From a virus, in UHGV virus genome UHGV-1353644: a stretch of 18,929 nucleotides of DNA; one strand, 5' to 3'. Shown one piece after another: positions 2,782-18,184 of the stretch (position 1 is its first letter; each line of letters begins with the position of its first letter). A model generated the notes under the pieces. That model ran no database searches. It saw nothing but the letters and a program-made list of their open reading frames with translations, and was not told where the DNA came from. The translations under genes were made by a program, and so were the position numbers.

Positions 2782-3239
2782 CAGTAAAGGTCCTCAGAGT
2801 AAAGTTCTTTTTCACTACCACCACGTTCAATACGTACTTGTCCAGCGTAAGTTGCAATAATCATTGCTTCTTCACGTGTCCAATAATTACTATATTGGTC
2901 AATAAACCCTTGGTCATCATCACAAACTTGTTGAGTAACTAATTGAGGTTTAACTATATCTAAAACTTCTGCCATATCTTTAGAATAATGACGAGCACCT
3001 GGAATAATAAGAGTTCGTCCATCTTTTAATTTAAAACGGTTGGCTGCACAGACAATTCGTCGTTGATACTTTTGGTTTTCATCCCAATATGCAGGCTGCC
3101 AACAGATTTCAGGAACTTCATCTAAAACATCCTGTTCTGTATATTCGCCATAAGAAGATAATTTAGCAGCTAAACTTTCAGGAGTCTCACGAGACAAAGC
3201 TTTATCTAACAGAGCTAAACGTTCTTTGAATGTTTTCAT
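2781..3239 (-). CDS. Hypothetical protein (152 aa)
   Basis: ORF track; ATGA overlap with the upstream ORF at 3236-3239; unbroken frame in a compact operon. Confidence 0.65.
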
Positions 3240-7101: not shown

Positions 7102-7212
7102 TCAAGGAGTATAAAATCCAAATGCAGTTGTTGACCATCCCATCCAATACGGGAAATTTGCGCCAATGTAAAACATAAGAATATAAAACCAACCGCTCAG
7201 CAAATTCATCAT
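7102..7212 (-). CDS. Tiny aromatic/hydrophobic ORF (36 aa)
   Basis: My own translation: MMNLLSGWFYILMFYIGANFPYWMGWSTTAFGFYTP. ATG overlaps the stop of the upstream ORF (ATGA). Confidence 0.4.
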   Translation of the reverse strand: MMNLLSGWFYILMFYIGANFPYWMGWSTTAFGFYTP

Positions 7213-7406
7213 TTTACACCATTCCAAATTGTTTCAATCACGGATTTTAAACCATTCTGATGAATATCCATTCCGACTACAGCCATCAAATAGATTCCAA
7301 CTACAACTGAACCTAATGCAAAAATCAGCATGAAAATGAATAAAGCCGGAAAAATATTATCGAAAAACCATTCCATAAATGTAAAAGCACTGCGTTTACG
7401 TTTCAT
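7209..7406 (-). CDS. Small membrane protein (65 aa)
   Basis: Internal ATG at 7406 preceded by SD TGAGGAAAAT (the track extends to 7427). Basic N-terminus MKRKRSAF followed by a hydrophobic stretch. Confidence 0.55.
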   Translation of the reverse strand: MKRKRSAFTFMEWFFDNIFPALFIFMLIFALGSVVVGIYLMAVVGMDIHQNGLKSVIETIWNGVK

Positions 7407-7413
7407 ATTTTCC

Positions 7414-7527
7414 TCACATAAATCCAAAGTAAACGTTTAATACATCAATCATTAAAACGATTGGGAATATACTCAAAACAACTAAAATTATAATTATATT
7501 CCATATAGCTTTAACAATCTTTTTCAT
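7414..7527 (-). CDS. Small membrane protein (37 aa)
   Basis: ATG at 7527 preceded by SD GGAGGA and lying just downstream of an early promoter; protein MKKIVKAIWNIIIILVVLSIFPIVLMIDVLNVYFGFM. The track's upstream extension would cover the promoter. Confidence 0.45.
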   Translation of the reverse strand: MKKIVKAIWNIIIILVVLSIFPIVLMIDVLNVYFGFM

Positions 7528-7554
7528 TTTCTGTTCCTCCGTAGTTGATAGGGT

Positions 7555-7586
7555 AATAGTACCACAGAGGAACAGTCTTGTAAACA
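7555..7586 (-). promoter_or_regulatory. T4 early-type promoter inside the small-ORF cluster
   Basis: Minus strand: GTTTAC (complement of 7580-7585), 18 nt ending CTGTGG, TACTAT (complement of 7556-7561), then leader TATCAACTACGGAGG. Confidence 0.55.
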
Positions 7587-7591
7587 ACTTT

Positions 7592-7690
7592 TTAAAAATA
7601 TTCGTAATAAATGTGAATACCAATCACTACTGCCGAAACTTGCGCAACCCACCATGCACAAGCAATAAGTACAGAATTCAAAATTTTCAT
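7592..7690 (-). CDS. Tiny hydrophobic ORF (32 aa)
   Basis: My own translation: MKILNSVLIACAWWVAQVSAVVIGIHIYYEYF. SD GAGGT upstream; ATG overlaps the stop of the upstream ORF (ATGA). Confidence 0.4.
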   Translation of the reverse strand: MKILNSVLIACAWWVAQVSAVVIGIHIYYEYF

Positions 7691-7773
7691 AATAACCTCA
7701 TCACAAAAGTAAATGTTAAACAAATTACTGGAATACTAATTAACCAAACAAAACACCACCATAACGAACTCAT
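7687..7773 (-). CDS. Tiny hydrophobic ORF (28 aa)
   Basis: My own translation: MSSLWWCFVWLISIPVICLTFTFVMRLL. ATG overlaps the TGA of the 87-aa ORF. Could be a chance frame in A/T-rich DNA. Confidence 0.35.
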   Translation of the reverse strand: MSSLWWCFVWLISIPVICLTFTFVMRLL

Positions 7774-8033
7774 AGTTCAATCTCAGCGATTTTCATTTCA
7801 TTACTATTAATAGCCGCTTTAAGACTATCCGAAAGAATTACATTCCAGTGGTCATTCATATGACCATTAACTAAGCGTGTAATTTCTTCAGGAGTTGAAA
7901 AATAAGGCTGATCAGACTCCCAGTGCGATAATCCTAAGCGGGTATAAATCATACCTTCATCATCGCTAGAATATTCAACTGACACAAACTCATCAGTTGT
8001 TTTATGTTTAGCGTAATAAAATTTAAATTTCAT
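7770..8033 (-). CDS. Hypothetical protein (87 aa from ATG at 8033; the track uses TTG at 8042)
   Basis: ORF track. The first ATG lies 5 nt downstream of the stop of the upstream ORF (8039-8041). Confidence 0.55.
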   Translation of the reverse strand: MKFKFYYAKHKTTDEFVSVEYSSDDEGMIYTRLGLSHWESDQPYFSTPEEITRLVNGHMNDHWNVILSDSLKAAINSNEMKIAEIEL

Positions 8034-8038
8034 TTTAT

Positions 8039-8245
8039 TCAATAATCCGCTAAAAGATCGACGATTGCATCACGAAGACATTTATTCGCAATACGTTTAA
8101 GAGCAATTTCAGTTTCAGGCGCATTTCGAATAATCATTGAATTCAATTCAGCTTCGGCAAACTGAAGTTCTTTGACTAATTCAGCTTTATATTTTCCTTG
8201 ACCTTTCTTAGCTTTTGCTCGTTTTAATTCAGCTGTAGTAAACAT
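8039..8245 (-). CDS. Hypothetical protein (68 aa), Lys/Ala/Glu-rich
   Basis: Internal ATG at 8245 preceded by SD GGAGAA, about 35 nt downstream of an early promoter. The track's longer form (to 8344) would run through the promoter. Confidence 0.55.
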   Translation of the reverse strand: MFTTAELKRAKAKKGQGKYKAELVKELQFAEAELNSMIIRNAPETEIALKRIANKCLRDAIVDLLADY

Positions 8246-8325: not shown

Positions 8326-8883
8326 TTAAATGGAAAGATACCATCCGTTGTAGTTACTTTTTCTTACAACCTTACGAAGGTCTTCTCTATCACCAATGAA
8401 CTTCGGAGTGTACTGGATGACACCTGGATGAATTTCTTTAGTGTTGAATATAATTATACAGTCAGCGACCTGATGATTCAGAATGGGCCCTAGATTTATT
8501 CCAGAACCGTATGGATACTCTCCGCTGCATCCTGTTGTTACCGAAATCCAACGAGAGTCAGTTTGATGTGTTTTGACTTCTACTCGAAGCCCACAGTATT
8601 TTGGATGTGCCAAAACATCCCATGCATATGTATACGGGTCATCTACATCTTCTTGACCTTTGTTAACATATCCACTTAACCAATCTGCTACAACATACTC
8701 GGCATACACTGCGATACGGCATCTTTCGATAACTTCTGCCTTATCCTGATTTGGATTTTGCTTTAAAGAATATCTCGCAGTATCAGCAATTTTGACCTTC
8801 ATTTCACTAGTCAAGTCACCGTTCGATAGGGTAAATGTCGGAATCTGAAATAGTCTCTGTAACCCCGGATTCGTTTTCTGCAT
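8326..8883 (-). CDS. denB: Endonuclease IV DenB-like (185 aa)
   Basis: Length and position between rIIB and ndd agree with recalled T4 denB. SD AAGGAAA upstream of the ATG at 8883. No diagnostic motif checked. Confidence 0.65.
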   Translation of the reverse strand: MQKTNPGLQRLFQIPTFTLSNGDLTSEMKVKIADTARYSLKQNPNQDKAEVIERCRIAVYAEYVVADWLSGYVNKGQEDVDDPYTYAWDVLAHPKYCGLRVEVKTHQTDSRWISVTTGCSGEYPYGSGINLGPILNHQVADCIIIFNTKEIHPGVIQYTPKFIGDREDLRKVVRKSNYNGWYLSI

Positions 8884-9145
8884 TTAGACTTTCCTTTTTA
8901 CCGCTGAGATAAGCGTTATACACTTTAAGAGTACCGTAGTAAATTCGATCGTTTTCATCTAAAGACTCGCGGTCAAGTTCATCGAGTTCCTTTTTATCCA
9001 TGACTATAACATCATTGCAGTAAAGAAACCCAAGTTTTTCGTGACCAAACTCTAATTTATTACAATACACAATGTTAGCGTGATGATTACCATGTAAAGA
9101 AATTTCTTTCATGTCGGAATCACCGATATTCATACAATAAATCAT
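8816..9145 (-). CDS. Hypothetical protein (109 aa); 3' end overlaps the denB start by 68 nt
   Basis: ORF track; SD AAGGTGA upstream of the ATG at 9145. Acidic C-terminal half; contains GDSD...HGNHH. Confidence 0.5.
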   Translation of the reverse strand: MIYCMNIGDSDMKEISLHGNHHANIVYCNKLEFGHEKLGFLYCNDVIVMDKKELDELDRESLDENDRIYYGTLKVYNAYLSGKKESLNAENESGVTETISDSDIYPIER

Positions 9146-12765: not shown

Positions 12766-12797
12766 AATTATACCACATCCTTGTGGTAAAGTAAACT
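12766..12797 (-). promoter_or_regulatory. T4 early-type promoter for rIIA.1-rIIA-rIIB, abutting the gp39 stop codon
   Basis: Minus strand: GTTTAC (complement of 12791-12796, overlapping the gp39 TAG by 1 nt), 18 nt ending ATGTGG, TATAAT (complement of 12767-12772). Confidence 0.6.
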
Positions 12798-14613
12798 ACT
12801 GGCTCATCCATTCTTTGCGAAGGTCAGCATTATCTCCCATGAGCATTTCAAAAAGCTCTTTCCAATTCTCAGGAAGTTTAACAACATCATATACTGGATT
12901 TTGAATCATCTCACGATATTCAGATTTTTCCAAAGAGCCAAGTCCTTTAATATAACGGATGCTATGTTTAGGTAGAGCATCTTTGGCACTCTCATATTCA
13001 GCGACTGTATAAAACCATTCTTGTTTTTTACCGACCTGAGCGATGATTACAGGAGTTTTGACAAAGCGAATTCGCCCCTGTTCAAACAGTTCTGGCCAAT
13101 TACTAAAAAATCCAAGCAGAGAAGGATAAATGCTTCCTAGACCATCATGGTCAGCATCAGTCATAATAGCAATATTACGATAATTCAAGTTTTCAGCTTT
13201 TTCACCAAGAACTAGACCAGTGATTGCGCAAATATCAAATAGTTCTTTGTTTTTAAGCATATCGGCATATGACATACCCCAGCTATTAAGAACTTTACCA
13301 CGCAATGGATAACCACCATGAAGTTCTTTATCGCGAACATCAATAAGATATCCGATAGCAGAATCACCCTCAGTTAAGAACAATGTAGTGTCAGCATCTT
13401 TACCACAAAGATTCGCTTTAATATGTTTATGAACCTTAGCTTTAGAAGCCTTTTTAGCTGCTTTAGTTTCTGCTGCTTTTTCTGCCGCCAATTTACGAGC
13501 TAATGCTGCTTCAATAATTGGCATCAAAATTGCTTCATTATTTAGAATAGCGCGTGAAATCTTTTTAGCATCAAGTTGAATATGACTACGAATTTCACCA
13601 AATGGAGAAGTCAAACGCTCTTTAGTTTGAGAATCAAATCGCATGTTTTTCATATCACGAACAAACATAACGATAGTCAAACATTCTTTAACACGTGCTT
13701 TAGTTACATCAATTTTGAACTTACGTTTGATTTGTGGAATAAGGTCTTCACAAATATCATCCATAACACAATCAATGTGATGGCCACCATTCTTAGTGTG
13801 AATGTTATTCACGTAAGTTAATTGACGAAAACCATCCGGTGAACGACCAACCGCAATAGAACAATTTTCTTGCTCTTGAACAATAGCATGCTCATCATAT
13901 TGGCGTGCATATTTCTTAAAATTACCCTGAACCTTTTTACCATTAAAGGTAAATTGAATATCAGGATAAACTACAGCAAGTGTCTGGAGACGATCTAGTG
14001 TAATGTCAAGATAAACTTGGGACAGCTCATTAGTTTCAAATGACATAAAATCAGGAATGAAAGTAACACGAGTTCCTTTCCATTTTCCAGGAATATCTTC
14101 CCATGATTTATTTTCCATGCCATTTGAACAACGAACTACAATATTATTTTGACCATCACCAGTTTCACCGACAAACATCACAGAAAAAATGTTTGTCAAA
14201 CTAGAACCAACACCGTTCATACCACCAGTGACGCGTTCTTTATCATCACCGAAGTTACCACCAGCTTTTGGAATAGTCCAAGCAGCTACCGGACCAGGAA
14301 TTTCTTCGCCGGTAGGTGTTTTAACCATCGCTTGTGGAATACCACGACCGTTATCTTCAACTGTTACTTGATTGTTTTTAATAGTAACATTAATTTTATT
14401 CGCGAATTTAAACTTAGTACGAATACCTTCATCTACTGAGTTATCGATAATTTCATCAATAAGCTTAACAAGACCAGGTACATACTGAACACTTTCCCAT
14501 TTACCAAACAGAAAGCGCTCATGCATTTCATTAGCGGAAGAGCCAATGTACATGCCGCTACGCTTTTTGATATGTTCAATATCGCTCAGAATTTTAATTT
14601 CATTCTTAATCAT
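12796..14613 (-). CDS. 39: DNA topoisomerase II large subunit gp39, unsplit GyrB-like form (605 aa from ATG)
   Basis: GHKL ATPase motif VEDNGRGIP, Toprim motifs LTEGDSA and DADHDG, and PLRGK. One continuous 605/606-aa frame, as in T2-type phages where genes 39 and 60 are fused. ATG at 14613 has SD GAGGA at good spacing (the track starts at GTG 14616). Confidence 0.95.
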   Translation of the reverse strand: MIKNEIKILSDIEHIKKRSGMYIGSSANEMHERFLFGKWESVQYVPGLVKLIDEIIDNSVDEGIRTKFKFANKINVTIKNNQVTVEDNGRGIPQAMVKTPTGEEIPGPVAAWTIPKAGGNFGDDKERVTGGMNGVGSSLTNIFSVMFVGETGDGQNNIVVRCSNGMENKSWEDIPGKWKGTRVTFIPDFMSFETNELSQVYLDITLDRLQTLAVVYPDIQFTFNGKKVQGNFKKYARQYDEHAIVQEQENCSIAVGRSPDGFRQLTYVNNIHTKNGGHHIDCVMDDICEDLIPQIKRKFKIDVTKARVKECLTIVMFVRDMKNMRFDSQTKERLTSPFGEIRSHIQLDAKKISRAILNNEAILMPIIEAALARKLAAEKAAETKAAKKASKAKVHKHIKANLCGKDADTTLFLTEGDSAIGYLIDVRDKELHGGYPLRGKVLNSWGMSYADMLKNKELFDICAITGLVLGEKAENLNYRNIAIMTDADHDGLGSIYPSLLGFFSNWPELFEQGRIRFVKTPVIIAQVGKKQEWFYTVAEYESAKDALPKHSIRYIKGLGSLEKSEYREMIQNPVYDVVKLPENWKELFEMLMGDNADLRKEWMSQ

Positions 14614-14640
14614 CACTTATCCTCGTTTGGTTTCGGGAAT

Positions 14641-17625: not shown

Positions 17626-18126
17626 TTATCTCATTTCAATAAAATCTACAAGTTCAGCATGGGATTTACGGAACATTACTTGATGCCCACCAATGATAAC
17701 TTCATCTTCAGGAACTTCATATATAGCAAGATAAAATCCTTTAGAAGCTAATTCTTCACGCTCTTCTCGTGTGAACCATCTCATCATATCATATTCACTA
17801 GCGAAAGCAAAATGATAAAGAGCTATAAACCATCCTGGAATATGATATTCTACTCCAACATAATCTTTCTTGAACTTAGTATTAATTACTATATTAGCGT
17901 TTTTAACTAATAGTTTATCTTCATGTGGTAAAGGAATTCTTTTATTATTATCGCTATGATGCATAAAATTAGGTCTGTCATAACCTACGTGTAATAGCCA
18001 CTCTTCGCTCCATGAATCTATTATACTCCTGTACGGCGTTATTTGAACACAAAGATTTCGACGTATTGTTATAGCATCTTCATAATCAAGAATACTAAAC
18101 GATGATTCAACACGATAAATTTTCAT
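17626..18126 (-). CDS. Hypothetical protein (166 aa from ATG)
   Basis: ATG at 18126 preceded by SD GAGGATAA, downstream of an early promoter (the track extends to 18165, which would cover the promoter). Confidence 0.65.
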   Translation of the reverse strand: MKIYRVESSFSILDYEDAITIRRNLCVQITPYRSIIDSWSEEWLLHVGYDRPNFMHHSDNNKRIPLPHEDKLLVKNANIVINTKFKKDYVGVEYHIPGWFIALYHFAFASEYDMMRWFTREEREELASKGFYLAIYEVPEDEVIIGGHQVMFRKSHAELVDFIEMR

Positions 18127-18152
18127 TTTATTATCCTCAGTAGCTATGGTGT

Positions 18153-18184
18153 TATAATACCACAACTAACCGAGGAAGTAAACA
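18153..18184 (-). promoter_or_regulatory. T4 early-type promoter directly after the dexA stop
   Basis: Minus strand: AAAAAGTT, GTTTAC (complement of 18178-18183), 18 nt ending TTGTGG, TATTAT (complement of 18154-18159). Confidence 0.6.

Follow-up and report, generated by a model that had tools for sequence, protein, structure and literature searches.

The interval between denB and ndd in the early region of bacteriophage T4 is annotated with a series of very small genes: ndd.1, ndd.2, ndd.2a, ndd.3, ndd.4, ndd.5, and ndd.6 (NC_000866, T4p269–T4p275). The products of ndd.1–ndd.6 are described as being of unknown function (PMC6071114), and Ndd.1 has been detected as an early protein (PMC9697503 Table S2). 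In phage RB14, two further genes adjoin denB: RB14ORF269 (RB14ncORF269c) and RB14ORF270 (RB32ORF266c, noted as similar to Aeh1ORF134c), which are annotated as hypothetical proteins in RB-series T-even phages. Here, we analyze the corresponding interval of UHGV virus genome UHGV-1353644 in an 18,929-nucleotide (nt) stretch of DNA (the window), where an earlier reading of the letters alone (the sequence-only reading) had proposed a chain of eight tiny, translationally coupled, mostly hydrophobic open reading frames (ORFs) between ndd and denB. We find that the eight frames, judged by identity and position, are already catalogued orthologues of T4 ndd.1–ndd.6 plus two RB-phage genes, so that the proposal is correct but not new, and that early promoters would divide them into two units.

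Published work bears on this interval in two ways. The first concerns promoter-early stem-loop (PeSL) modules (Arbiol 2010; Comeau, Arbiol & Krisch 2014, PMC4122927), in which a stem-loop lies just upstream of an early promoter; gene or cassette exchange at ndd.4/ndd.5 between T4 and phage PST is discussed there. The second is genetic. In particular, the saDelta9 deletion, which extends from 52.1 to denB, still permits a burst of 50% and abolishes T4-induced stimulation of phospholipid and phosphatidylglycerol synthesis (PMC6071114), and a T4 transposon screen (HIDEN-SEQ preprint) reports every ndd.x gene as non-essential and tolerant of insertions. Full-text literature searches by gene name returned only PMC6071114 and PMC4122927, and a search on ribosome profiling of T4 turned up nothing relevant.

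RESULTS

The eight frames correspond to catalogued genes

The window is a T-even (Tequatrovirus) early region with the minus-strand order rIIA, rIIB, denB, small ORFs, ndd, stp, ac, gene 52, and motA. All eight ORFs of the sequence-only reading, of 71, 36, 65, 37, 32, 28, 87, and 68 amino acids (aa), were reproduced on the minus strand with the lengths claimed (Table 1). The 36-, 32-, and 28-aa ORFs had been said to lie outside the program-made ORF track; they are indeed missing from a 60-aa ORF list, and the track left them out only because of its length threshold.

Six of the frames match T4 by tblastn, with identities of 96% (71-aa), 97% (36-aa), 95% (65-aa), 89% (37-aa), 97% (32-aa), and 100% (28-aa), and comparison of the annotated T4, RB14, and PaulHMueller regions shows that the order and strand of ndd.1–ndd.6 between denB and ndd are kept. 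The 87- and 68-aa ORFs are 99% identical to the RB14ORF269 and RB14ORF270 products and occupy the same position. In Bas45 PaulHMueller (97.4% identical), all eight ORFs are annotated as coding sequences with the same lengths. PHROG profiles match all eight ORFs full length (E-values of 1.6e-17 to 9.8e-46); residues 5–63 of the 65-aa ORF match Pfam DUF7248 (PF23906) with 71.8 bits against a gathering cutoff of 27; and megablast with the 1.6-kb stretch gave matches in 511 phage records (745 with blastn), of which almost all belong to T-even phages of Escherichia, Shigella, Yersinia, and Salmonella. The likeness to T4 (89–100% amino-acid identity, same order and strand) extends to predicted membrane character and early promoters. 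Unlike T4, the window has an intact 65-aa gene, a 37-aa ndd.4 (annotated as 42 aa in T4), and two extra genes between ndd.6 and denB. The genes are best explained as non-essential, immediate-early accessory genes of a Tequatrovirus phage.

In several GenBank records, homologues of ndd.1 or ndd.4 are named 'naphthalene 1,2-dioxygenase', and 'outer membrane protein' or 'periplasmic protein' is given for the tiny peptides; such labels look like propagated annotation, unsupported by sequence.

Table 1. Features of the denB–ndd interval, in window coordinates, in the direction of transcription
Feature	Position	Strand	Remarks
denB	8883-8326	(-)	
Early promoter P1	8308-8280	(-)	TTTACA-17-TACTAT, TG before -10; denB/68-aa gap; promoter scan
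68-aa soluble helical protein, RB32ORF266c type	8245-8039	(-)	PHROG 4535; without T4 counterpart
87-aa soluble alpha/beta protein, RB14ORF269 type (gene RB14ncORF269c, noted similar to RB69ORF270c)	8033-7770	(-)	PHROG 2390; absent from T4 and T2
28-aa hydrophobic peptide = T4 ndd.6	7773-7687	(-)	PHROG 8851; ATGA overlap with 87-aa gene
32-aa hydrophobic peptide = T4 ndd.5	7690-7592	(-)	PHROG 5011; ATGA overlap with ndd.6
Early promoter P2	7584-7556	(-)	TTTACA-17-TACTAT, TG before -10; ndd.5/ndd.4 gap; promoter scan
15-bp hairpin	7575-7531	(-)	5' arm in P2 spacer; 3' arm holds ndd.4 Shine-Dalgarno sequence
37-aa predicted single-pass membrane peptide = T4 ndd.4	7527-7414	(-)	PHROG 3098
65-aa predicted membrane protein = T4 ndd.2a + ndd.3 as a single gene	7406-7209	(-)	PHROG 2401; Pfam DUF7248
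36-aa aromatic-rich peptide (or 35 aa from ATG 7209) = T4 ndd.2	7212-7102	(-)	PHROG 4135; ATGA/TGATG overlap with 65-aa gene
71-aa soluble acidic protein = T4 ndd.1	7093-6878	(-)	PHROG 2183; chain member, beyond the interval 7102-8245
9-bp GC-rich hairpin	6871-6850	(-)	Between ndd.1 and ndd; dG -16.6 kcal/mol, z -2.7; no T-run after
ndd	6818-6363	(-)	

The frames are under selection as coding sequences

We compared the frames across 53 loci (22 of close relatives and 31 of more distant T4-like phages), counting synonymous and non-synonymous events (S/N) against an expected synonymous fraction of about 0.28 (0.285 for the pooled test). Among the close relatives, S/N is 22/9 for the 71-aa frame (ndd.1; p = 3e-6), 14/11 for the 36-aa frame (ndd.2; p = 0.0025), 24/11 for the 65-aa frame (ndd.2a; p = 2e-6), 9/3 for the 32-aa frame (ndd.5; p = 0.0012), 18/12 for the 87-aa frame (significant), and 9/1 for the 68-aa frame (p = 9e-5). 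Pooling the five hydrophobic ORFs gives 57 synonymous and 36 non-synonymous events (p = 5e-11), and the enrichment is confined to the annotated frame, with none in either alternative. ATG-initiated ORFs cover 98.5% of the coding strand versus 8% of the opposite strand; in 500 dinucleotide shuffles, the coverage is 29% ± 12%, with a maximum of 64%.

Conservation extends well beyond the close relatives. Four families (ndd.4, ndd.2a/DUF7248, ndd.2, and ndd.6) persist, with their order kept, in distant T4-like genera, and amino-acid motifs are retained at 35–65% identity between genera despite diverged DNA. Specifically, ndd.4-like peptides of 37–42 aa, with a K-rich N-terminus, an IFP motif, and an invariant Asp, are present in 48 of the 53 loci; DUF7248/ndd.2a-like proteins of 65–71 aa have a conserved C-terminal GLKSVVExIWNG in 35 loci; ndd.2-like peptides have a conserved GxNxPYWxG motif in 31 loci; and ndd.6-like homologues with WCxxW..IPxxC are present in 30 of the 53 loci. 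Within the close relatives, ndd.6 is 96–100% identical in 22 of 22, with the frame intact in 21. Among all loci compared, ndd.5 was detected in those of Tequatrovirus only. The conserved core of the region is ndd.4 and DUF7248. A full scan of 1.84 billion representative proteins, a library without source names, yielded only six ndd.4 relatives at E ≤ 1e-3, and the four inspected are 37–38-aa ndd.4-like peptides; the family appears to be rare beyond T4-like phages. Single-sequence queries in word-indexed protein searches yielded few matches.

Sporadic disruptions occur in single isolates: T4 (ndd.2a), a T2 ymfE mutant (nonsense at codon 45), ECO4 (ndd.2), fFiEco06 (ndd.1), Pu-Krd-SF5 (ndd.5), and the locus L005 (ndd.6, C-terminal frameshift). 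This pattern fits accessory genes. The frames are thus real genes, as supposed, under purifying selection and with homologues in distant genera; the lack of conservation in relatives that would have spoken against them is not what we find.

Two observations concern a natural variant. A 62-aa protein of Shigella phage Sf25 is an in-frame fusion of ndd.4 residues 1–31 with the C-terminal half of ndd.2a, and it carries the precomputed Pfam labels PF26889 and PF23906. From the former label, a Pfam family for ndd.4 may exist beyond the local Pfam copy, and the fusion fits an equal membrane orientation of the two peptides.

Junctions and start codons

Three of the junctions are ATGA stop/start overlaps of the kind described in the sequence-only reading: 7773–7770 (87/28), 7690–7687 (28/32), and 7212–7209 (65/36). 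The 68/87, 37/65, and 36/71 junctions are spacers of 5–8 nt, and at the latter two the TGA stop lies inside the Shine-Dalgarno (SD) sequence of the next gene (TGAGGAAAATATG, TGAGGTGAATTATG). SD sites are conserved at the small ORFs, and the refined ATG starts are the same ATGs that are conserved in relatives. Translational coupling is probable at these overlaps and short spacers, but the proposed chain does not hold as a whole: two junctions are gaps of 64–80 nt that hold promoters, so the chain is not one uninterrupted coupled unit.

The comparison also revises three start or frame assignments. The first ATG of the 36-aa ORF reads ATA in 7 of 22 relatives, and therefore the second ATG, which yields 35 aa and a TGATG overlap, is probably the true start. 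Of the close relatives, 20 of 22 keep the 65-aa gene intact. In the T4 reference, the gene carries a 1-nt deletion directly after ATGAA (T4 NC_000866 locus 2933–3129 aligned to window 7209–7406), which explains its artificial division there into two genes, ndd.3 (26 aa) and ndd.2a (40 aa). The 42-aa start of T4 ndd.4 is an ATG made within the SD sequence by a C-to-T change; the conserved start yields 37 aa.

Two T4-type early promoters and two predicted transcription units

P1 and P2 fit the T4/PST early consensus TTTACW-N17-TAYWAT (PMC4122927) and have a common core, CTGTGGTACTAT...CTATCAACT, which was found by pairwise alignment and missed by a direct-repeat search. An early-type promoter is present upstream of the ndd.4 homologue in nearly all T4-like loci examined. 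P1 would serve the 68-aa gene, the 87-aa gene, ndd.6, and ndd.5, and P2 would serve ndd.4, ndd.2a, ndd.2, and ndd.1, continuing into ndd. Both would act as sigma-70 promoters of T4 type, with ribosomes probably relayed from frame to frame within each unit. We infer that the two early units are translated independently of each other and do not make up a single coupled chain. The placement of the genes in an early operon is supported by the T4-type early promoters in front of them and by the early class of the T4 ndd.2–ndd.6 transcripts (PMC9697503 Table S2).

Both promoter-bearing gaps resemble PeSL modules in having an AT-rich stretch, TTTACA-N17-TACTAT, an SD sequence, and an ATG. They appear to differ from these modules in the position of the stem. 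The published stem-loop, which in the PST/T4 pair has the form AGNA-loop-TCNT, directly precedes the promoter. Folding of the two gaps gave no clear stem upstream of the -35 element and placed stems within or across the promoter; the hairpin at ndd.4 spans the -10 element and pairs the promoter spacer with the SD sequence.

A hairpin that would mask the ndd.4 Shine-Dalgarno sequence

The 15-bp hairpin at ndd.4 has a folding free energy (dG) of -23.2 kcal/mol and z-scores (z) of -4.7 and -6.3 in two calculations, and its 5' arm is absent from P2-initiated RNA. The hairpin would mask the ndd.4 SD sequence in read-through RNA, which would leave RNA initiated at P2 as the template for ndd.4 translation. 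Comparison of pairs by per-sequence folding and an SD-anchored pair table identified equivalent stems, of different sequence and with compensatory pairs flanking the SD sequence, in at least four other lineages. RNAalifold returned no structure for ndd.4 upstream regions aligned with MAFFT, since the register of the arms shifts from one lineage to another. A covariance model of the hairpin also matched generic early promoter/SD sites, and the mixed alignment that it produced was dropped from the pair counts.

Hairpins of this general kind are known from T4 gene e, soc, and I-TevI, where a long transcript hides the SD sequence in a hairpin and an internal late or middle promoter gives a shorter RNA in which the SD sequence is free. 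The arrangement at ndd.4 appears analogous, with the SD sequence folded in the upstream transcript and a promoter inside the hairpin; it differs in that the internal promoter is early and the regulation is a prediction. A like hairpin, in which the promoter spacer is paired with the SD sequence, is present at motB.2 (18126–18182, minus strand; dG -23.7 kcal/mol, z -6.3), so that two of the five early promoter/gene-start pairs of the window (ndd.4 and motB.2) have it. The spacer-to-SD hairpin may be a general insulator of early genes in T-even phages. Instead of terminating transcription, the 9-bp hairpin that separates ndd.1 from ndd could serve in RNA processing or stability.

Membrane character of the products

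We scored each product by its best 19-residue Kyte-Doolittle mean (KD19). The 37-aa (ndd.4; 3.08), 65-aa (ndd.2a; 2.71), 28-aa (ndd.6; 2.33), and 32-aa (ndd.5; 2.18) products are above the transmembrane threshold, and the N-termini of ndd.4 and ndd.2a are K/R-rich. The 36-aa product (ndd.2) is borderline, with a KD19 of 1.17, but 33% of its residues are aromatic. The remaining three products (71, 87, and 68 aa) are hydrophilic. The description of most of the products as strongly hydrophobic or aromatic thus holds for five of the eight (37, 65, 28, 32, and 36 aa) and fails for the 71-, 87-, and 68-aa products, which are not membrane peptides. From hydropathy and charge, the four above-threshold products are predicted to be single-pass inner-membrane micro-proteins with the N-terminus inside, and ndd.2 is a borderline candidate.

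Mosaicism next to denB

The region had been described as hyperplastic, and presence/absence mosaicism in relatives, together with PMC4122927, agrees. Four configurations adjoin P1 in relatives: the 87- and 68-aa genes together, the 87-aa gene alone, the 68-aa gene alone (T2), and neither gene (T4). Among the close relatives, 5 of 22 (about a quarter) carry the 68-aa gene, which is also found, at 93% identity, in a Mosigvirus-like locus (L033) that is otherwise ~63% identical (ndd only 63%). The 87-aa gene has three allele types, with about 50–55% identity, at one site in phages that otherwise share about 95% identity. The divergent 87-aa alleles and the 93% identity of the 68-aa gene in a diverged phage (loci L033, L040, and L044) point to cassette exchange of the two genes, and their insertions and deletions fit the PeSL exchange model. 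A single-sequence AlphaFold2 model of the 68-aa protein is all-helical, with three helices, at moderate confidence (predicted local distance difference test score, pLDDT, of 74), and was left out of the fold search.

Two observations concern neighboring genes. A 109-aa ORF at 8816–9145 on the minus strand, of the RB32ORF268c type and without a T4 counterpart, shares 68 nt with the beginning of denB, read as a frame of 185 codons, and because of this overlap many records annotate a 158-codon denB from an internal ATG. A single 606-aa ORF at 12796–14616 on the minus strand follows rIIA.1; its position is that of the split topoisomerase genes 60 and 39 of T4, and it is presumably the unsplit large subunit of other T-even phages.

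DISCUSSION

What the hydrophobic products might do

The reading that we favor, and regard as somewhat probable, is that these are catalogued early genes in two promoter-led units whose hydrophobic products act as inner-membrane modulators of host envelope or lipid physiology. The peptides keep family-specific polar and aromatic motifs (the Asp of ndd.4, the GLKSVVExIWNG tail of ndd.2a, GxNxPYWxG in ndd.2, and WCxxW..IPxxC in ndd.6), which suggest binding to defined host inner-membrane partners early in infection. By such binding, they would adjust the physiology of the envelope or its lipids in the manner of small membrane proteins of bacteria, the weakest step of the proposal and one that we infer, and they are candidates for the phosphatidylglycerol-stimulation phenotype that maps to saDelta9. 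The analogy is to AcrZ, MgrB, MgtS, and CydX and to T4 Ac, Imm, and RI: products of 28–65 aa, each with a single hydrophobic helix and conserved polar residues, for which partner binding is proposed. It is an analogy only, in that no sequence or family relationship was found. The allele-diverse, soluble 87-aa protein would more likely bind a variable host or defence factor.

Several points weigh against this proposal. Proteomics detected no ndd.2–ndd.6 protein in T4 (Class_P NA; PMC9697503 Table S2). The saDelta9 deletion removes about 13 genes, and mutants lacking only dCTPase, EndoIV (denB), and Alc likewise fail to stimulate phosphatidylglycerol synthesis (PMC6071114). The T4 reference, the strain type in which the stimulation was seen, has a frameshifted ndd.2a. 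Searches of Pfam, NCBIfam, PADLOC, PDB, and BFVD found no similar characterised family. Finally, ndd.4 (S/N of 5/7) and ndd.6 (5/4), taken alone, show no significant synonymous excess within Tequatrovirus, with too few events. The PDB sequence matches that did appear (a DARPin C-terminal helix and a ZBP1 fragment, E about 0.1) are short and were rejected as spurious.

In a narrower form of the proposal, which seems to us improbable, ndd.4, ndd.2a/DUF7248, and ndd.2, whose order and tight coupling are kept across T4-like genera, would be one conserved immediate-early inner-membrane module with hairpin-gated translation. The module would have a specific target in the host envelope, such as phospholipid synthesis or an abortive-infection sensor located in the membrane.

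Alternatively, the peptides and two soluble proteins could be counter-defence or superinfection-exclusion effectors, directed against membrane-embedded abortive-infection or exclusion systems or against entry of competing phages, close to what the sequence-only reading had envisaged. This is possible but rather unlikely. The neighbors stp, ac, rIIA/rIIB, and denB are in keeping with it, as are the hyperplastic presence/absence mosaicism, including the 68-aa gene nearly unchanged in a diverged phage, the three divergent 87-aa alleles at one site, and the dispensability on K-12 of all T4 genes here, as expected of conditional genes. However, the T4 transposon screen reports no ndd.x hit under RexAB, RnlAB, CBASS, DarTG1, or DarTG2: the hits under these systems and in minimal medium are other genes, and the ndd.x rows retrieved from the preprint have q = 1 (HIDEN-SEQ preprint). 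Among known defence and anti-defence families, we found no profile or fold match and no conditional requirement against a defence system, and three of the eight products are not membrane peptides.

It is doubtful that the hydrophobic peptides are host-toxic 'monkey wrench' peptides, resembling viroporins or type I toxins, that permeabilise or depolarise the inner membrane for host shut-off. Their size and hydrophobicity are like those of type I toxins, and many small T4 immediate-early genes, a group described as being largely of undetermined mechanism, are lethal to the host when cloned (PMC6071114). Against this, the 36-, 37-, 32-, and 28-aa peptides have no Pfam match at E ≤ 0.1, and so none to a toxin or holin family, and the conserved family-specific polar motifs speak for specific binding. 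Moreover, early in infection T4 depends on an energised membrane, and depolarisation harms the phage, as rII/Rex biology shows.

That the tiny ORFs are chance frames, or spacer ORFs merely relaying ribosomes to ndd, with no functional protein, would account for the missing ndd.2–ndd.6 peptides in T4 proteomics and for the frameshift or nonsense changes in individual isolates (T4, the T2 ymfE mutant, ECO4, Pu-Krd-SF5, and L005), but the synonymous excess in the annotated frame only, the motifs conserved at 35–65% identity across genera, the conserved SD sites, and an ORF coverage far above that of shuffled sequence make it extremely improbable, and on these sequence grounds we regard a non-coding reading as excluded.

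Implications

The implied novelty of the chain does not hold: its members are T4 ndd.1–ndd.6 and known RB-phage ORFs, present in GenBank records and PHROGs. The analysis adds no new element, because these ORFs have carried names in the T4 annotation for decades and have entries in PHROGs and Pfam. The genes fall in a deletion interval linked to an unexplained lipid-synthesis phenotype, and their function is a modest question; follow-up is merited, if at all, only by the SD-masking hairpin and the conserved ndd.4/DUF7248 core. For the T-even phages, the practical points are that T4 ndd.2a and ndd.3 are one gene, that ndd.4 and DUF7248 are the core of the region, and that a predicted SD-masking hairpin splits the supposed chain.

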